Origin: a phage
Sequence record: PX418213.1
Reading direction: 5' to 3' (one strand)
Length of the DNA: 64,000 bases
Shown here piece after piece: positions 3,381 to 32,294 of this stretch (the first letter of the stretch is position 1; each line of letters opens with the position of its first letter). Below the pieces are notes generated by a model, which was not told where the DNA came from, did not search any database, and was given only the letters and a program-made list of their open reading frames with translations. The translations under genes were made by a program, and so were the position numbers.

Positions 3381-3469
3381 TGGCGGAAGAAGTGGGAATC
3401 GAACCCACAAGGCTATATTTCAAACCGACAGATTAGCAATCTGCTGCAATACCGTTATGCTATTCTTCC
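3381..3469 (-). tRNA. tRNA-Ser (anticodon GCT), class II
   Basis: Perfect acceptor ggaagaa/ttcttcc; anticodon arm gcaga-TTGCTAA-tctgt; long extra arm; T-arm gtggg-ttcgatt-cccac; 89 nt with CCA. Confidence 0.7.
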
Positions 3470-3484
3470 GAATTTATAAGATAT

Positions 3485-3514
3485 ATTATATTAGAAATTT
3501 AGCTTCATAGCAAG
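3485..3514 (-). promoter_or_regulatory. sigma70-like promoter (minus strand)
   Basis: attata/agcaag pair with 18-bp spacer; upstream of tRNA-Ser and tRNA-Met-like. Confidence 0.45.
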
Positions 3515-4009
3515 AAAATTTTTCAAGTTTTCGGTAGACATCTCATCCATATCTACGGGAGAAACAAAGCCGTTTAATTTTCTAGCAAATTTTTCACCTG
3601 CAGGGTCATTATCCCCAACAGCTACCAATTTAAAAGGTAGTAATTTCAGTTGCTTTAATAATGCTTTTCCTGGAGAAGAACCCAACATTGCCAGGGCTGG
3701 ATAACCAGCGTTATGTAGCGCCACTGCCTTAAATACAGACTCAGCAATCAATACTACTTTTTCATCTCCATTGAGAGTTTCTAGTCCCCATACACACTGG
3801 GTAGTAGAATAAGTAAAATATTTAGCTTCAAAGGGGCACTTACCATGACCTTTTGGAGCAGAAGGATTATAAGTTTGATAGCCCCTCAACATCCCAGAGA
3901 AGTCATACAACGGGACTGTTAGCCATCCTTCCGGACTTAACCAGCAATGATATTTATCTGTATCAAATCCTCTAGATAAGAGGTGCTGTGTTAGCTCATC
4001 AACATTCAT
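3491..4009 (-). CDS. Toprim-domain protein
   Basis: Translation has the conserved Glu (LIAESV) and a DxD-type motif (VAVGDNDPAGEKFARKL). Start moved to the internal ATG at 4009 (MNVDEL) because the promoter -10 lies at about 4040-4045 and an AGAGGAA SD precedes it. Confidence 0.5.
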   Translation of the reverse strand: MNVDELTQHLLSRGFDTDKYHCWLSPEGWLTVPLYDFSGMLRGYQTYNPSAPKGHGKCPFEAKYFTYSTTQCVWGLETLNGDEKVVLIAESVFKAVALHNAGYPALAMLGSSPGKALLKQLKLLPFKLVAVGDNDPAGEKFARKLNGFVSPVDMDEMSTENLKNFLAMKLNF

Positions 4010-4039
4010 ATTTGGTTCCTCTCTCAAATTTATAGATAT

Positions 4040-4068
4040 ATTATACTGAGAATTTAGCATTCAAGCAA
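4040..4068 (-). promoter_or_regulatory. sigma70-like promoter (minus strand)
   Basis: attata/aagcaa with 17-bp spacer; upstream of the Toprim gene. Confidence 0.45.
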
Positions 4069-4184
4069 TCAAATTTTTTAACTTTTTAGAGGAAAATCAT
4101 AGGGCACTTAAGGGTAGCAGATAAGTGGTGAGGACCAAAATTTGTGACCCCACTAAAAATTCAGGGGCAATTTTTAAAGACCCC

Positions 4185-4213
4185 TTGACATTTTCGCTGG
4201 GGTAGTGTAAAGT
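4185..4213 (+). promoter_or_regulatory. sigma70-like promoter (plus strand): -35 TTGACA, about 17 bp, -10 TAAAGT
   Basis: ccTTGACAttttcgctggggtagtgTAAAGTat upstream of the counter-oriented cassette. Confidence 0.45.
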
Positions 4214-4274
4214 ATATGTTATGGATGAGTGATCAAAGAGACACACATTTTCTATATACTAGGAGGTGTCAAAA

Positions 4275-5261
4275 ATGACAGAAGAAGTAGCTAAGAGTCC
4301 TGAGACCGTCGCTAGCGTTGCAGCAGAACTGCACCGTCACGAGGAATCAGATAAGAAAAAGTGGGAGAAGGTCAGAGCCTACGAAGAAAAACATCGTGAA
4401 CACGATGATGAAGAAGATGACGATGATGAACATTGTCATAAATATGGAAAACATAAAATGCAAGAACCAGTAAACGTATTTACTAGTGGCTTCCCTGGCC
4501 TACTGGGTGGTTACCCAGCAAACGCAGGTGCTTTCGGTGGTGAAGGTATGGGACTATTCGGAGCTATCCTAATCGGTGCTCTATTAACAGGCGGATTCGG
4601 TGGATTCGGTGGATTCGGTGGACGTGGTATAGTTGGTGAAGGTACCGCAGTTGATGCAGTACTTCAGAACCAAGATACCGCTAGTATTCTAGCAGCTATT
4701 AACACTACTCGTACAGAAGCTAATCAGGGTACTGGGGCTGTTTTAAGCGCAGTTAACAATGGTTTTAGCCAGACATCCCAAAACCAGAGCCGTGATACTC
4801 AGTCTGTACTAACTACGATCTATGGTACAGGTGCTAATCTGTCTAATCAGATCTGCCAGGAAACTCGCAATGTTATTCAGGGTCAGTTCGATCTTTCTCG
4901 CCAGATTGATCAATCTTTCGCAGCTAATCAGATAGCTCGTGCACAAGATAAGTTTGATTCTGCACAGATCGCTTTCCAGCAGACTTTACAAACTAATAAC
5001 CAGTTTGCCGCTGTTCAGGCTCAGATGTGTGCTAACCAGAACTCTCTGGAACGTCAGATCGCTGAATGTTGCTGTGAACTTCAGACTGCGATCGCTGGTG
5101 TAACTACTGCGCGTATCCAGGATGAGTTAGACGCATGTCGCCTACGTGAAGCAATCGCTGCGGGTAGCGGTGCTAACGGTCAGGTAATTAATCAAATCGC
5201 TTTAAGTCTTGGTGCTATCACTCAGACTCTGGCTGGTCTGCAGGCTAAACTGCCGGCTTAA
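4275..5261 (+). CDS. hypothetical protein: acidic His-rich N-terminus, glycine-zipper hydrophobic segment, Gln/Asn/Thr-rich C-terminus
   Basis: AGGAGG SD at 4261-4266 then ATG 4275 (the track start at 4266 is GTG); GLFGAILIGALLTGGFGGFGGFGG segment; E. coli-like codon choice; plus-strand gene inside the minus-strand block. Confidence 0.55.
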   Translation: MTEEVAKSPETVASVAAELHRHEESDKKKWEKVRAYEEKHREHDDEEDDDDEHCHKYGKHKMQEPVNVFTSGFPGLLGGYPANAGAFGGEGMGLFGAILIGALLTGGFGGFGGFGGRGIVGEGTAVDAVLQNQDTASILAAINTTRTEANQGTGAVLSAVNNGFSQTSQNQSRDTQSVLTTIYGTGANLSNQICQETRNVIQGQFDLSRQIDQSFAANQIARAQDKFDSAQIAFQQTLQTNNQFAAVQAQMCANQNSLERQIAECCCELQTAIAGVTTARIQDELDACRLREAIAAGSGANGQVINQIALSLGAITQTLAGLQAKLPA

Positions 5262-26650: not shown

Positions 26651-27254
26651 TCCACATAACCGAGTCATTTTGGCTCGGTTTTACCCGTACTCAAGACCAA
26701 TGATAGCACCATCCGGAAAATTTTACTTGCAGGATGCCCAAAATCTTGATATAATATTTATATTGAATTGAGAGACATTAGTAAAAATTGATTTTGCTAA
26801 TTTTTCTTGTTTACAATCCGCGATACGGAACAGTTAGGCTGCCCCATTAAGGGTTGTTTTAACTGTTACGTGTTAGTTTTTAAACAAATAATTAATAGAA
26901 TACTTAGCGATCTACATCCCGTAGGAACCCTGGTAAGGCCTCGAAGCAACCTAGTGTGAGGTGGTTGTGAAGTGAGACGGGAAGAGTGAAAAACTCTGAG
27001 AAGTGATGACGTAAGGTATACTACATCTAGTATGAGCTAGTACATGAAGCATTAGGTGAGCAAATCTGGCTTAGCGGCCATCCTCAAGGATTTGTGCGGT
27101 ATAGTGAAGCGGCAGTGTAGCGTGAAAGGGGAAGTTGCCACCCCCCTTCAGTATTTGCGATTAATTTGTTGAGAAATTGACAGTAACAGTTGTTCTATTC
27201 TTTCTGAATAGTCCTAAAGAAAACTTATTTCATTTCCAACACAGGAGTATTGTT

Positions 27255-30041
27255 GTGTTCTCAATCCTACAAGGTCATGCAGGATTTCATCGCGATTTAG
27301 CCACAGGCAATTGGCGAGAAGTTAAAGCAGAAGACTATCTTTTTGCTAAAAGATTTTCCTCAAAGCATCCTGAAGGTAAACCAGCTTCAATGCCCTTCAA
27401 GTTTGATGTAATTGATGAAGTTGATCCTCAAACCCTAGTAGAAATGCTTCCTCTTATGAGACGTTTAACGTCTGACCCTCATATCGTTGCGGTACGAGGT
27501 CGATGTCTTGCACCTAAAAATAATGTGCGACGTAAGAAGGGCAACTTTAATATATCTAACCCAAGTCATATAATTGCAATGGACGTGGATGGTATTGTAG
27601 ATACAGGTGGTTGTAACAAGTTTGATCTTGTTGGCATGGCTCGACATATTATTAGAATGTTAAATAGTATTAGTGAGGATATGTTTCCTCTTGATGCAGG
27701 GTTTATTGCTCATGCATCGTCTTCGGCTGGACTAAAACCAGGTATCCGAATGCACTTAATACTAGAATCTAATGTTAAAGTAACTCAGGGTCAAATCAAA
27801 TTCTTATTTACATCTATCAACGAAAGTAGTAGACAAAAGTATGGCTTTGATATTGCCGACTTAGCCTATTACTCTTCCGTACAGCTCCATTACTTTGCAG
27901 ATCCGTTATTTATCGATGGTATAGTAGATCCGTTTAAAGCGGAGGGTGCTTCACGTCTGGTATTTGTTAAGGGTTCTAAAGTAAATTTACCCAATAATCT
28001 GGTTGACTATGAAACAACTAGGGGTGAGTTTAAAGAGGAGTTTTACTCTTTACTCGATCAAATTAAAGGTAAAAAAGCTGCCTCTGATAAAGTAGAGGAA
28101 ACTATCAGCGAACTAGAAGAAGCTGAGGATGGAGTGTATCTACGTATCATACCTAAACTCTATCACAGAGCTTTAGAGGATGGTGTTGACTTTGCATGGC
28201 TAGAAAAAGAAATCCGTCCAGCCTTATCAGAGTATATTGCAACTAAAGATAATAGTCGTAATATTCAAGATTACTTTAATAACGGTCGTAAACAGGCTCT
28301 GAAAGCATTTGTTAATAATTCTAAACGTGATATACCGGATGTTTTAAAAGGTATTCCACTTAAAAAACTAGAAACTAATTCTCTAGAAACTGATAACTTC
28401 TTGAAATTAAATACTGTACCACCAGAAGGTTATATGACTTTTGTAAAAGCAAGTCTAGGTACAGGTAAAACTACAGCGGTTGTGCGTTGGTTAGACTCAG
28501 GAGTTATTAAAGGTAATTTCTTAGCAATTACCAATACTAGAGCGCTAGTATCTTCAAATGCTAAGAAATTTAGTGCAGGACAATATGATAAGTCTGTAGA
28601 TATGCTTAATTTTAAGCGTGGTGCTATTGACCGTATGTCCACAACTATTCACTCTTTGCATAAGTTCAAGAGTTTTATTGGTCAAATTGATGCAATCTTT
28701 ATCGATGAATGTGATGCTGTAATGAATGACCTATTATTCGCCCCGGTTGTTAAACAACGTCGTGAATGTATTCAGGTTCTTCGAGACATTCTTGCAACTG
28801 CAAAAATCATTATATTATCTGATGGGGATATTAGTGCAGAAACAATTGAAGCATATGGTTCTTTGATTGAGTTTGATAAACCGGTTGCATTTTATAATCA
28901 TCACCGTAAAATGCTATCAAAAGCTCATGCTTATGAGTTCCCGGATGAATCCAGTATTTGGGTTGCACTTCAGACTTCTCTAGAGATGGGTGAGAAATCT
29001 ATCCTAGTATCTGACTGTGGGCCGGATGAACTGAATGAGAAGGGCATGGCATTACGTCGTAATACGGGTGCGTTAGTTAAGGAAATCCACTCAAACTCTA
29101 CGTCTGATGTAGATATTCGACGTATTCTGGATTACACAACTAATGAGCTAATTGATCAACAAATTGATTGCTTATTATGTAGTCCATCGGTAACAAGTGG
29201 TGTTGACTTTAACTACTTTGATAACGTATTCGTTATTACTAGAACCTCAAACCAAGCGCCAAACATGCGTTTCCAAGCAATCAGGCGCGACCGTGGTGCT
29301 CAGAACATTTATTATTTTATTGATAAATCTACGAGTGGGTTCTCCGCAGGTTCTGAGCAATATAACATTGATGAAGGTTGGCTGGAGTTAGCACAGCAAT
29401 TATACGCACGTCGCAGGGAGCTGGAATCTAGAAACTATACTAGTACTCTACGTTATTACTTGCTTGATCAGGGTGCAACTATTGATATTTTCAGTGAAAG
29501 CTGGGGAAATATCGAAGGTGCAGGAAAAGAGTATACGGAAGAGCGAATCAAAGCTATTTTGTATTCAACTCCTGATTATTGTGCTCCACGCCATGCAGAT
29601 GCGTATGAAGCTAAACTACTTCTTGTTCGCTATTACCATCTTGAGTCTATTAAAGATGTAACAGTTGAGCATGTTGAACAATATATCAAAGATAAACCGA
29701 ATGATCGAGCTGCATTCTTCCATAAGATGCACGAGATGTTCTGGGAAGATATTAAGAAGTGTTCAAATGTCACTATCAAACCCTTTATAGAAGCTCTGAA
29801 AGGTAAGAAGAAAGATTTCTTCCTTAAAACAGGTCAGAGTGCTAACCCAAAATATGCGAGAATGTATCTTGGTATGATGGGTATTGGCAAGGATATGAAC
29901 ACGGAGAATATTGTAGACTGGTACAGAACCTATTGTAAAATCGAGTGTATGCCAATCCCCCTAAAATTCATGACAGAGGAAGAGAAGGCCATGGCAGAAG
30001 AAGTAATGTCCGAACTTGGAGCAACCAATGAAGATACATAA
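27255..30041 (+). CDS. SF2-type helicase/ATPase, putative replication origin-binding protein
   Basis: Walker A (ASLGTGKTTAV), Walker B (IFIDECD), helicase motif (LLCSPSVTSGVDF); start taken as GTG at 27255 after AGGAG; the upstream track extension lacks an SD. Role inferred from position. Confidence 0.6.
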   Translation: MFSILQGHAGFHRDLATGNWREVKAEDYLFAKRFSSKHPEGKPASMPFKFDVIDEVDPQTLVEMLPLMRRLTSDPHIVAVRGRCLAPKNNVRRKKGNFNISNPSHIIAMDVDGIVDTGGCNKFDLVGMARHIIRMLNSISEDMFPLDAGFIAHASSSAGLKPGIRMHLILESNVKVTQGQIKFLFTSINESSRQKYGFDIADLAYYSSVQLHYFADPLFIDGIVDPFKAEGASRLVFVKGSKVNLPNNLVDYETTRGEFKEEFYSLLDQIKGKKAASDKVEETISELEEAEDGVYLRIIPKLYHRALEDGVDFAWLEKEIRPALSEYIATKDNSRNIQDYFNNGRKQALKAFVNNSKRDIPDVLKGIPLKKLETNSLETDNFLKLNTVPPEGYMTFVKASLGTGKTTAVVRWLDSGVIKGNFLAITNTRALVSSNAKKFSAGQYDKSVDMLNFKRGAIDRMSTTIHSLHKFKSFIGQIDAIFIDECDAVMNDLLFAPVVKQRRECIQVLRDILATAKIIILSDGDISAETIEAYGSLIEFDKPVAFYNHHRKMLSKAHAYEFPDESSIWVALQTSLEMGEKSILVSDCGPDELNEKGMALRRNTGALVKEIHSNSTSDVDIRRILDYTTNELIDQQIDCLLCSPSVTSGVDFNYFDNVFVITRTSNQAPNMRFQAIRRDRGAQNIYYFIDKSTSGFSAGSEQYNIDEGWLELAQQLYARRRELESRNYTSTLRYYLLDQGATIDIFSESWGNIEGAGKEYTEERIKAILYSTPDYCAPRHADAYEAKLLLVRYYHLESIKDVTVEHVEQYIKDKPNDRAAFFHKMHEMFWEDIKKCSNVTIKPFIEALKGKKKDFFLKTGQSANPKYARMYLGMMGIGKDMNTENIVDWYRTYCKIECMPIPLKFMTEEEKAMAEEVMSELGATNEDT

Positions 30042-30546
30042 ACCAATGCCTCCTATGGCATTTATCCTGAAAAAGCTTAAGTATGATGAAAGTACTGGGG
30101 ACTTAATTTGGTTATCTGGCCCAAGGAAGGGAAGGGTAGCGGGCTCCAAAATGAAAACTGGGAGACAGTTAGAGTTTACTATAAAGGGAGAGCGGACAGC
30201 TTACTTAGCCCATAGAATAATCTGGTTTATAAAAACAGGCGAAGATCCTGGGGATAAAACTATCGACCACAAAGACGGGGATAACTTAAACAACTTGTGG
30301 GATAATTTACGTAAGGCTACCTACTCCGAAAATGGAAAGAATAAGAAGTGTTCTACTAATTCTACCGGATTCACTGGAGTTGTAAAACGAGGTAATAGGT
30401 ATATGGCCTACGCTTACTGTGATGGAAAGCAGCATATTTTTGGTAGACGAGATACCCCGGAAGAAGCCCATCAGCTATACCTTATGGGAGTTAAAGAACT
30501 GTTTGGTGAATTTAATCCCTCGGAGAGATATGACAGTGAAGAATAA
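30028..30546 (+). CDS. HNH endonuclease with AP2-type DNA-binding domain (homing-endonuclease-like)
   Basis: HNH block (AHRIIW...IDHKDGDNLNNLWDNLR) followed by AP2-like block (TGFTGV...GNRYMAY...FG...TPEEAHQLY); AT-rich with rare AGA/AGG/ATA codons; overlaps the end of the upstream helicase. Confidence 0.7.
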   Translation: MKIHKPMPPMAFILKKLKYDESTGDLIWLSGPRKGRVAGSKMKTGRQLEFTIKGERTAYLAHRIIWFIKTGEDPGDKTIDHKDGDNLNNLWDNLRKATYSENGKNKKCSTNSTGFTGVVKRGNRYMAYAYCDGKQHIFGRRDTPEEAHQLYLMGVKELFGEFNPSERYDSEE

Positions 30547-30763
30547 AAAATGGGAAACAAGGAAGTTCCCAGTAAAAGAACGTAAAGTTCCTGCTTACAA
30601 CACTTCGGAAAAGCTATGTAGGGTGGTTCCTGCTAGACTAGCTGGCATCCCTAACATATCCGAGTGGTTACTTAAACAACGGAAAACAAACGTGTCTCTT
30701 CGCATCGGCTTTGAGTTAGATAAAGTCTATGCTGAACTTGCTTCTTTGCTCAAGGAATCGTAA
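30530..30763 (+). CDS. hypothetical protein (about 77 aa)
   Basis: In-frame ATG within track ORF 30419..30763, preceded by GGAGAG; overlaps HNH gene end. Confidence 0.35.
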   Translation: MTVKNKKWETRKFPVKERKVPAYNTSEKLCRVVPARLAGIPNISEWLLKQRKTNVSLRIGFELDKVYAELASLLKES

Positions 30764-30771
30764 AAATTTAT

Positions 30772-30800
30772 TTGCTTTCAGGAAAATTTTTCTGTATAAT
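30772..30800 (+). promoter_or_regulatory. sigma70-like promoter (plus strand) with conserved leader
   Basis: atTTGCTTtcaggaaaatttttctgTATAATagattcataaatttgagagaggag. Confidence 0.5.
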
Positions 30801-30831
30801 AGATTCATAAATTTGAGAGAGGAGTTTAAAT

Positions 30832-31536
30832 ATGGCTGGTTCTCGCAGAAAGAAACATATCCATGAAATCCCTGATGAAGTCTTTAAAAAGGTTATAGAG
30901 CATCTGGAGAACGGTGGTACTAAGAAAGCAGCATGTGAAATGCTCGGCGTATCATCCAATCCAACTATGGAAAGGATGATTGAGGAGTGGCAAGACCGCC
31001 AGATCCAAGTTGCCGAAATGAAGAAAAAGAAACGCGGCACACTTATTGAAGGCATTGAGTTAGCTAACGTTATTGAGCAGTATTTATCTGGTGATTCTTT
31101 CGAAGAAATTGCCGATCGTAATTACCGCTCTGTAGCAATGGTTAAATCTGTTCTGGAACGATATGGTGCTCTACTTCGTTTGAACGATATTGTAGATCCA
31201 TTGAATCCTCCAATTATTCCTGATGATGCTGTAGCAGAAGAATTTGCAGTTGGTGAGCTTGTTTGGGTTCCTGGATACCAGTGTATTGGTGAAATCAAAA
31301 AAGCAATGGATAATCCTGTTGGTTGCTATCGTGTATGGCTTCTATCAGAAGGCAAACAACAGAACGTCCATTATATGAATTACGAGCTGGCTTCTGTTAA
31401 ACATCTGGAAAAATTAGGGGTTGACGTAAAATCTCTAGGGTACAAGTGGACTCGTGAAGAAGTAATTTCATTAATTAATGAAGCTGTTAAGGCTGCCTTG
31501 AAACTTGATAAAGAAAAAGGAAAACGCCGTGAGTAA
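30832..31536 (+). CDS. hypothetical protein with N-terminal helix-turn-helix-like segment
   Basis: GGTKKAACEMLGVSSNPTMERM resembles an HTH; strong promoter and SD upstream. Confidence 0.5.
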   Translation: MAGSRRKKHIHEIPDEVFKKVIEHLENGGTKKAACEMLGVSSNPTMERMIEEWQDRQIQVAEMKKKKRGTLIEGIELANVIEQYLSGDSFEEIADRNYRSVAMVKSVLERYGALLRLNDIVDPLNPPIIPDDAVAEEFAVGELVWVPGYQCIGEIKKAMDNPVGCYRVWLLSEGKQQNVHYMNYELASVKHLEKLGVDVKSLGYKWTREEVISLINEAVKAALKLDKEKGKRRE

Positions 31537-31780
31537 GCTAACAGATTTGCTTAAAGATGGGGAAGTAAAAACTCTGTATCGTAGAAGCTGGGATAATGAT
31601 AATAATGGCTTAGTATTACTAACTCTAGATGCTGACTCAGATGTAGTTACCCAACATACCTGGGTAGCTGGTAATTATCCCTATAGTGAGGTTGTTACGT
31701 TAACAGTATGCGAAGCTATTGCCGACGATTGGGAGGTTGCCAGCATCGATGATATGCTCGCTGTTGGCCTGGTGGAGTAA
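31529..31780 (+). CDS. hypothetical protein (about 83 aa)
   Basis: Track ORF 31505..31780 trimmed to the GTG after AAAGGA; start uncertain. Confidence 0.35.
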   Translation: MSKLTDLLKDGEVKTLYRRSWDNDNNGLVLLTLDADSDVVTQHTWVAGNYPYSEVVTLTVCEAIADDWEVASIDDMLAVGLVE

Positions 31781-31883
31781 CTACAGAAAAATTTCAGTTG
31801 CTTAATCCTATAATTCTTGATATAATATTCTCATAGTTTGAAAGAACTATTCTGTTTAATTCTTAATTAAGGAAATATAAAAT

Positions 31884-32294
31884 ATGACTACTCCAACTCA
31901 GTGGACTGATGAACTGTTCGAAAAAATGTCTTCCGAATACGTTGCTCGTATGGAGCAATTCCCAGAGGATGAACGTCCGGGTGTTAGCATGGAAATTGTT
32001 AGCGAAATTGCCCAGGAAAATGGTGTAACTCCGAACGGTTTTCGTATGAAGCTGACTAAAGCAGGTTTGTATATCAAGAAAGCTGCTGGCTCCGCTTCTA
32101 AATCTAGCGCATCTACTGGAGAAAAAGCTTCTGGTGGTTCTCGTACTTCCAAAGCCCAAGCTCATGCCGATCTTCGTTCAGCATTCTCTGATGCTGGCTT
32201 AGCACCAGATTTTCTGGATGATGCAATTATCGACAAACTGACCGGTAAAGCGGCTGCTCATCTGGCAGAAGCAATCCGAGCTATCACTAAGTAA
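31884..32294 (+). CDS. hypothetical protein (136 aa)
   Basis: ORF track; promoter-like -10 elements upstream. Confidence 0.5.
   Translation: MTTPTQWTDELFEKMSSEYVARMEQFPEDERPGVSMEIVSEIAQENGVTPNGFRMKLTKAGLYIKKAAGSASKSSASTGEKASGGSRTSKAQAHADLRSAFSDAGLAPDFLDDAIIDKLTGKAAAHLAEAIRAITK

Follow-up and report, generated by a model that had tools for sequence, protein, structure and literature searches.

hegI is a probable mobile insertion in a T5-like locus

The open reading frame at 30028–30546 on the plus strand of the window (the whole 64,000-nucleotide stretch of phage DNA that was analyzed, PX418213.1) is a real gene and the ortholog of hegI (T5.109) of phage T5. It very probably represents a free-standing homing endonuclease gene (HEG) that belongs to the HNH_3/I-HmuI group, has an AP2-type domain at its C-terminus, and reached this locus as a mobile insertion through a homing mechanism. 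The feature is an ordinary one, and was known and annotated before.

The window originates from a T5-like phage (Tequintavirus), with locus-wide identities of 93–96% to T5 and its relatives. The hegI ortholog is intact and encodes 172 aa, running from the ATG at 30028 to the TAA at 30544–30546, with a DNA identity of approximately 96% to T5 hegI. The annotations of relatives at this position read hegI, HNH or homing endonuclease, and in the T5 annotation T5.109 (YP_006937) is listed as 'putative H-N-H-endonuclease P-TflIX'. The host gene, which carries the insertion at its 3' end, is obp (27177–30041, plus strand), encoding a replication-origin-binding protein of the UL9-like SF2 helicase type. 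Its protein matches PHROG 3712 (E=0) and Pfam Herpes_ori_bp (E=3.5e-7), its counterpart in the T5 annotation is T5.108 ('replication origin binding protein'), and its start candidates are the TTG at 27177 or, going by the length annotated in T5, a position at about 27255. On the other side lies the T5.110 ortholog (30530–30763, plus strand), which encodes a 77-aa protein of PHROG 5291.

The initial annotation had described hegI as overlapping the end of the helicase gene, and the start of hegI indeed overlaps the end of obp (stop codon at 30039–30041) by 14 nt. A putative Shine-Dalgarno sequence, GGAG, was read from the sequence at 30018–30021 (plus strand), 6 nt before the hegI ATG and within both the obp coding sequence and the HEG-linked tract described below. 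As in a free-standing HEG, obp has its own stop and hegI its own Shine-Dalgarno sequence and ATG, without an in-frame fusion. No hegI paralog was found in the 64-kb window, the best other tblastn match having E=0.6. A search for a dedicated hegI promoter found only weak 9/12 consensus matches upstream, and the T5 annotation gives no promoter upstream of hegI. RNA structures that hide ribosome-binding sites are known for some T4 HEGs. Such masking was unsupported for the ribosome-binding sites of hegI and T5.110, with z-scores of -1.40 and +0.58 that were no better than those of shuffles, and the minus-strand terminator-like hairpins at 30045–62 and 30553–70 were therefore taken as chance.

Domain architecture and conservation of the hegI protein

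The hegI protein consists of an N-terminal beta-rich module (residues 1–58), a beta-beta-alpha-Me nuclease (residues 59–107, with D80, H81, N93, N102, and N105), and an AP2-like module of three strands and a helix (residues ~113–163). The HNH block that had been proposed from the translation was recovered as a match of residues 59–103 to Pfam HNH_3 (PF13392; E=1.2e-12), with a score of 47.7 bits against a curated cut-off of 24.8, which places the protein in His-Me finger group 2. The closest solved structure is I-HmuI, and D80/H81/N102 of hegI align with D74/H75/N96 of I-HmuI. The catalytic His (general base), the adjacent Asp, and the metal-ligand Asn of the beta-beta-alpha site are all present, and H81, N93, and N105 are invariant among 62 full-length homologs. 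The proposed AP2 block holds for the homologs and the family profile but not for a direct match of the protein itself: Pfam AP2 gave no match to the full protein or its C-terminal 71 aa even at E<=10, whereas PF00847 matches the aligned C-terminal segment in 43 of the 62 full-length homologs, and the family profile matches the AP2 structures WRI1, TEM1, ERF096, and AtERF1 (E=2.8e-11 to 2.8e-5). The hegI segment departs from conserved positions of the family, with FGRRDT for LGxFDT and LYLMGV for AYxxAA. The architecture of an HNH_3 nuclease joined to a probable AP2-type DNA-binding domain is supported and survives this testing. Distant homologs of hegI occupy unrelated loci in other phage-like contigs.

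Analysis of sequence variation showed that hegI is kept intact under purifying selection. All 12 distinct alleles are intact, third codon positions hold 32 of the 47 polymorphic sites, and the overall pN/pS is 0.136. Constraint on the protein is tightest in the HNH block, where the pN/pS falls to 0.03. This last value bears on whether hegI encodes a nuclease-dead AP2-type DNA-binding regulator, for instance a transcription factor or, in the manner of the AP2-containing CasPRs, an anti-defence repressor. AP2 domains do exert sequence-specific repression in some phage proteins (bioRxiv 10.64898/2026.02.23.707548); however, the constraint on the HNH block and the conservation of all its catalytic and metal-binding positions make a regulator of this kind extremely unlikely.

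Insertion site and junctions

When the window and T5 were aligned with DaisyDussoix and with Stokescottia, a phage with an empty site, the insertion proper was delimited as a 502-bp segment (30028–30529, plus strand) that is missing from HEG-less relatives, with edges that are ambiguous by the 4-nt ATGA common to both junctions and the empty site. The insert is always 502 bp long and always at the same nucleotide position, at the ATGA microhomology in the last 17 nt of obp. Comparison of the left flank, insert, and right flank with 33 loci by BLAST revealed that the flanks of empty loci lie close together, the right one beginning 5–6 nt past the end of the left one. In the HEG-less arrangement the ATG of T5.110 overlaps the last 17 nt of obp, and in the window it overlaps the last 17 nt of hegI. 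From the insert, obp acquires a different, short C-terminus and a new stop codon, while hegI ends in the original DSEE codons and stop of obp, so that the 17-nt overlap with T5.110 is kept. The description of hegI as inserted after the helicase is accordingly right in placing it at the obp 3' end, but the insertion lies within the last 17 nt of obp, replacing its last residues and borrowing its original stop.

A divergent tract at the obp 3' end is linked to hegI

Comparison of fixed differences and identity between HEG+ and HEG- phages revealed a HEG-linked divergent tract at 29972–30027 (plus strand), a replacement obp 3' end that is a candidate for a co-converted or cleavage-immune target region. 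The obp protein ends in ...EEEKAMAEEVMSELGATNEDT before the stop in HEG+ phages and in ...DEEKHMHDEAMAELGARNDSEE before the stop in HEG- phages. The tract is 56–70 bp long, and hegI is always linked to it. The HEG+-specific fixed differences number 16 (14 in 29978–30027 and 2 in 29928–29977), all within approximately 100 bp directly upstream of the insert, and the rest of the 1600 bp upstream and the 280 bp downstream contained none. Over the last 50 bp, HEG+ and HEG- sequences are 62% identical, compared with 90–95% within each group. At an identity of at least 92% the tract is confined to the 24 HEG+ records. No donor lineage was identified among the HEG- alleles, of which the closest (DT571/2, DT57C, Gostya9, and HildyBeyeler) reach 84–87% identity in the left part only.

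Distribution among T5-like phages

The initial annotation had proposed a presence/absence comparison at this exact junction, and the junction proved to be occupied, always at the same site, in 24 phage records (~14 named phages) and contiguous and empty between obp and T5.110 in 412 records. Approximately 94% of relatives lack hegI. In IMG/VR, hegI was present in 3 of 30 T5-like loci, with identical junctions. For every HEG+ phage the nearest neighbors by flanking DNA are HEG- phages, and the HEG+ phages form no clade in the flanking DNA. The gene was thus not found with native composition in all relatives, the outcome that had been named as contrary to a mobile insertion, because most relatives lack it. 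Its patchy presence at one nucleotide position supports the mobile-insertion reading.

The ATGA microhomology at both junctions could also mediate precise deletion, and an ancestral hegI might have been lost in this way from most relatives. This history is very unlikely: the empty 17-nt-overlap arrangement occurs in all 412 records, including divergent lineages at 80–85% identity, and also where the D2 protein of the locus has no more than 68–73% identity, and the HEG+ phages are scattered among HEG- neighbors. Deletion also leaves unexplained the obp 3' tract that is common to all HEG- phages and differs from the HEG+ tract at 14–16 fixed positions.

The distribution is likewise informative about the site-specific single-strand nicks in T5 virion DNA. 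HNH enzymes of the I-HmuI type nick DNA (PMC3017599), and I-HmuI is the solved structure nearest to hegI, which could make hegI the source of these nicks. However, BF23 DNA has T5-type nicks (PMC10644984), yet BF23 is absent from the 24 hegI records and has an empty site, in which obp is followed directly by the T5.110 homolog. The role of hegI as the T5 nickase, which was exceedingly improbable overall, was rejected on these grounds.

Composition and codon usage

The GC content of hegI is 0.407, a value that exceeds those of the window (0.391), obp (0.381), and, slightly, D2 (0.403), and that ranks at the 70th percentile among 40 long ORFs. The gene is therefore not AT-rich unlike its neighbors, as had been claimed, and AT-richness was rejected as a sign of foreign origin, the GC of hegI being above the window value. 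The rare codons noted initially are confirmed in part, with a CAI of 0.58 (7th percentile) and 9.4% rare codons against 4.8 +/- 2.4%. Codon usage is atypical only mildly, and it is not diagnostic, because the conserved neighbor T5.110 scores lower still. The native-like base composition suggests that the acquisition of hegI was not recent or that the donor was similar.

Proposed homing mechanism

From these features we infer that hegI has endonuclease activity and homes. In the proposed mechanism, hegI would be transcribed early together with obp, and ribosomes would start on its own GGAG/ATG, probably through coupling to the termination of obp. The enzyme, as a monomer, would bind the empty obp/T5.110 junction in a co-infecting relative that lacks the HEG, via its N-terminal and AP2 modules, and its single beta-beta-alpha-Me site would nick or cut near the junction, nickase activity being typical of I-HmuI-type HNH enzymes (PMC3017599). 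On the empty allele, the cut or nick is predicted near ...GCTAGAA/ATGACAGTG (slash, predicted position). Repair by recombination from the HEG+ genome would then copy hegI and, by co-conversion, the adjoining obp 3' tract. Immunity of the HEG+ genome itself would follow from the insert, which splits the site, and from the many substitutions in the adjoining 30–56 bp. The searched literature contained no cleavage, target-site or homing experiments on hegI and nothing specific on the function of hegI/P-TflIX.

The patchy distribution and the short linked tract could alternatively go back to a single ancient insertion, with ordinary homologous recombination between co-infecting phages thereafter. 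A related possibility is a domesticated or relic HEG that entered once, no longer homes here, and is kept because its nuclease benefits the phage, perhaps by excluding competitors, breaking down DNA of the host or of foreign origin, or stimulating recombination, with the patchiness arising from ordinary recombination and loss. The strong purifying selection (pN/pS as above), the native-like composition, and the retention of hegI for decades in laboratory phage T5 agree with such a relic, and the population data do not separate active homing from passive recombination. Nevertheless, the approximately 94% of relatives without hegI replicate well, and hegI is perfectly linked to a uniquely divergent target-adjacent tract, a linkage that is predicted by target immunity or co-conversion and is not required by a trans-acting benefit. 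We thus regard a domesticated or relic HEG as unlikely. Whether hegI actively homes as an HNH-AP2 nickase in the Tequintavirus populations of today, each event overwriting the last ~20 obp codons, appears to us evenly balanced.

If active homing is true, hegI would drive allele replacement (marker exclusion) in the essential core replication gene obp, and the sensitive and immune target alleles would form a natural pair for studying how an AP2 domain of a nuclease reads DNA. The fine anatomy of the locus, comprising the insertion in the obp/T5.110 overlap, the borrowed stop, and the 56-bp recoded obp end, provides a ready-made system in which to characterise an HNH-AP2 endonuclease biochemically. 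The practical value of the finding is mainly annotation hygiene: hegI is a selfish element and is therefore not to be mistaken for a component of the replication module. The pattern is textbook-style and leaves current understanding unchanged.

Comparison with known systems

T5 hegI and its orthologs in SE11, DaisyDussoix, IrisVonRoten, BB1, MM-1, and others are this very gene, found at an identical nucleotide position, all of 172 aa, with DNA identities of 94.8–99.8% and likewise a 14-nt overlap with obp and a 17-nt overlap with T5.110. The window protein differs from that of T5 by 7 amino acids and is identical to that of SE11, the substitutions being allelic only. I-HmuI and I-BasI (Bacillus phage SPO1/Bastille; PDB 1u3e) are HNH homing endonucleases with approximately 18–26% sequence identity to hegI. 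I-HmuI is encoded by a group I intron and has helical and HTH C-terminal DNA-binding modules, whereas hegI is free-standing and its C-terminal domain is probably of the AP2 type. HNH-AP2 is described as a recognised HEG architecture in PMC5714182 and in PMC10448857, which cites Magnani et al. 2004. The HNH-AP2 HEGs of phages, cyanobacteria, and protists have the probable two-module layout of hegI, in which HNH is N-terminal and AP2 is C-terminal. In the ICP1 IPA-HNH HEGs (PMC10448857) the HNH domains are too divergent for Pfam HNH_3, while hegI matches HNH_3 strongly and its AP2 module is the part too divergent for Pfam. The T4 seg/mob HEGs (SegB, SegG, and MobE) are, like hegI, intron-less, inserted between conserved genes or at their ends, and patchy, and the co-conversion of flanking markers by T4-type free-standing HEGs (PMC2330249; PMC10448857) is a life-style that hegI probably shares. 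Their nuclease or DNA-binding families differ from those of hegI, seg being GIY-YIG and mob belonging to the PF01844-type HNH group (PMC5714182). [quoted passage not shown]

Identity and domain architecture of the hegI ortholog

The window derives from the genome of a T5-like siphophage (Demerecviridae, Tequintavirus). A sequence search with 28,500–32,000 returned matches in 508 phage records, with 93–96% identity to T5, vB_EcoS_MM-1, JLBYU40, SE11, and others. The ORF runs on the plus strand from the ATG at 30028 to the TAA at 30544–30546, encodes 172 aa in an intact reading frame, and carries a GGAG motif (30018–30021) 6 nt 5' of its ATG. The syntenic T5 gene is hegI (T5.109, YP_006937), annotated in AY543070 as "putative H-N-H-endonuclease P-TflIX", and other records place an HNH or putative homing endonuclease at the same position. 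The ORF is plainly the T5 hegI ortholog and belongs to the HNH_3/AP2 family of homing endonucleases. A literature search on hegI itself found nothing.

The product matches Pfam HNH_3 at residues 59–103 (E = 1.2e-12) and PHROG 99 ("HNH endonuclease") at residues 2–168 (E = 1.9e-50). Among solved structures, a sequence search gave a single match, to I-HmuI, a homing endonuclease that nicks DNA (1u3e, E = 0.036). Its D74/H75 and N96 align with D80/H81 and N102 of the hegI product; Shen et al. (2004) reportedly described these I-HmuI residues as the general base and metal ligands. The initial annotation had proposed an HNH block combined with an AP2 block, and the HNH part is matched directly, whereas the Pfam AP2 model gave no match to the product even at E ≤ 10. 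This miss is explained by substitutions at several AP2 positions that are conserved across the family (FGRRDT versus LGxFDT, LYLMGV versus AYxxAA). Nevertheless, the C-terminal AP2 assignment appears to hold, because the family is very large (an exhaustive homolog search with a limit of E ≤ 0.001 gave 66,809 cluster representatives), because PF00847 is matched in 43 of 62 full-length members within the segment aligned to hegI residues ~113–163, and because the profile built from the same 62-member alignment matches the plant AP2/ERF structures WRI1 (E = 2.8e-11), TEM1 (3.6e-8), ERF096 (1.2e-6), and AtERF1 (1.9e-5). The same profile matches I-HmuI at E = 5.2e-8. Homing endonucleases that combine HNH_3 with AP2 are already recognised (PMC5714182, group 2; PMC10448857, citing Magnani et al. 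2004).

Comparison of the 12 distinct hegI alleles revealed that all are intact, each encoding 172 aa, with a mean pN/pS of 0.136 and 32 of the 47 polymorphic sites at third codon positions. These values indicate that hegI is an expressed protein under selection and not a decaying relic. By region, pN/pS is lowest in the HNH block (0.03), followed by the AP2 block (0.09) and the N-terminal block (0.31). The idea of a nuclease-dead AP2 regulator conflicts with the HNH motif, which is conserved and lies in the most strongly constrained region.

Insertion at the obp/T5.110 junction

The upstream gene, obp (27177–30041, plus strand, stop at 30039–30041), encodes the T5 replication-origin-binding protein, a UL9-type SF2 helicase; its earlier designation as an SF2 helicase is acceptable given the matches to PHROG 3712 (E = 0) and Pfam Herpes_ori_bp (E = 3.5e-7). 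The proposed overlap with the helicase end amounts to 14 nt. The obp start is ambiguous: the frame is open from TTG 27177 (954 aa, the length annotated in JLBYU40), T5 and most relatives are annotated with 2787 nt, corresponding to a start near 27255, and the PHROG alignment begins at residue 27. Downstream, the last 17 nt of hegI are shared with the T5.110 ortholog (30530–30763, plus strand, 77 aa, PHROG 5291, function unknown). This gene is kept in all relatives examined, and in every case its start lies 17 nt inside the ORF before it, regardless of which ORF that is.

An insert-only query (30045–30525) was found in just 24 records, all at 94.8–99.8% identity, representing about 14 named phages (T5, SE11/SE8, DaisyDussoix, IrisVonRoten, BB1, Kenya-K37/K43, JLBYU40, ESCO30, MET_P1_100_107, MM-1/MM-2, and phiAPCEc03). 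The empty junction is contiguous in 412 records, as detected with a 151-nt probe across the empty junction of phage Stokescottia, and 3 of 30 T5-like IMG/VR loci carry the insert. This presence and absence at the exact junction bears out the mobile insertion proposed initially, an interpretation upheld overall except for its composition argument.

The empty site reads ...GGTGCTAGAA/ATGACAGTGAAGAATAA and the occupied site ...GCAACCA/ATGAAGATACATAA...GAGAGAT/ATGACAGTGAAGAATAA, so that the insert proper spans 30028–30529 (502 bp, plus strand), with a 4-nt ATGA microhomology at its flanks. Since the insert lies within the last 17 nt of obp, the end of obp is now encoded by the first 14 nt of the insert (NEDT* instead of NDSEE*), hegI ends with the original obp codons DSEE and stop, and the 17-nt T5.110 overlap is preserved, along with the GGAG 5' of the T5.110 ATG. 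Neither obp nor T5.110 is therefore disrupted by the insert.

The gene had also been described as AT-rich, which is incorrect: its GC content is 0.407 (70th percentile among 40 long ORFs), against 0.391 for the window, 0.381 for obp, and 0.403 for D2, and its GC3 is 0.39 against 0.29 for obp. The claim of rare codons unlike its neighbours stands in part, as usage is mildly atypical (CAI 0.58, 7th percentile; rare codons 9.4% versus 4.8 ± 2.4%), but the CAI of the universally conserved T5.110 is lower still (0.56, 3rd percentile), the lowest codon adaptation among local genes. Overall, composition gives little support for or against a foreign origin.

A divergent obp tract linked to hegI

We compared the flanks of the site, 1,600 bp on its upstream and 280 bp on its downstream side, in an alignment of 5 genomes with the insert (HEG+) and 22 without it (HEG-). 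The 100 bp directly 5' of the insert contain all 16 HEG+-specific fixed differences, with 14 in the final 50 bp, where identity is 62% between groups and 90–95% within groups; across the remaining flanks the two groups are indistinguishable. The obp C-terminus is ...EEEKAMAEEVMSELGATNEDT* in HEG+ and ...DEEKHMHDEAMAELGARNDSEE* in HEG- phages. At an identity of at least 92%, the HEG-linked tract (29972–30027) occurs only in the 24 HEG+ records, and the nearest HEG- alleles (DT571/2, DT57C, Gostya9, and HildyBeyeler) match its left part only, at 84–87%. An ancestral hegI, precisely lost many times, is unlikely, as divergent lineages have the empty arrangement and the obp end common to all HEG- phages differs from that of HEG+ phages. 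Domestication of the nuclease is a minor possibility, but it leaves unexplained why a divergent target-adjacent tract is linked exclusively to the gene.

The closest flank relatives of every HEG+ genome are HEG- phages, so either the gene and its ~56–70 bp tract moved among backgrounds or backgrounds recombined around the gene. The HEG-less DT571/2 (locus L019) has a hybrid obp end, aligned to 29958–30027, whose left ~40 bp are HEG+-like (LKFMTEEEKAMAEE) and whose last ~30 bp are of HEG- type; it could represent the element's lineage of origin or a partial conversion product.

Other insertions occur nearby in relatives, at a second hotspot that lies ~230 bp further downstream, in the interval from T5.110 to P-N25, where the window has no insert. 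DaisyDussoix (locus L003, 3764–4344) carries there a 120-aa HNH_3+NUMOD4 HEG (E = 1.3e-8) and a 70-aa ORF, and three IMG/VR loci (L007, L014, and L027) carry ~550 bp of extra DNA at about 3445–4000. The closest non-T5 homologs (~40% identity) lie in tightly packed phage-like operons on contigs L058 (HNH genes at 2079–2759 and 4001–4546) and L059 (837–1133, 2789–3295, and 5710–6045). This local density, with two or three HNH genes per contig in a span of a few kb, fits a family spreading as HEGs at many unrelated loci.

Expression and proposed homing

The T5 annotation has no promoter between obp and hegI and a strong early promoter, P-N25, just past T5.110; a promoter scan upstream of hegI gave weak promoter-like matches only. 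The most likely arrangement is therefore early co-transcription of hegI with obp and translation from the gene's own SD, which may be coupled to termination of obp. The P-N25 counterpart (30752–30827), just 3' of T5.110 and 5' of D2, shares 98% identity with T5 across a 100-nt stretch that includes TTGCTT...TATAAT, and was missed by a simple consensus scan. P-N25 is the origin of the "T5 promoter" in expression vectors.

For practical purposes, hegI can be ruled out as the enzyme that nicks the T5 genome, since the obp/T5.110 site of BF23 is empty yet BF23 DNA has T5-type nicks (PMC10644984).

By analogy with I-HmuI and the T4 seg/mob elements (PMC3017599, PMC2330249), a monomeric enzyme would bind the obp/T5.110 junction in a HEG-less relative that infects the same cell and nick or cut near it, and recombinational repair would copy hegI together with the adjoining obp tract. 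The HEG+ allele is predicted to be immune, because its site is split and the adjacent 30–56 bp are heavily substituted. Taken alone, the population data are compatible both with such active homing and with a single insertion followed by ordinary recombination. In its nuclease module the hegI product would work like I-HmuI, and as a free-standing, intron-less gene hegI has the lifestyle of the T4 seg/mob elements.
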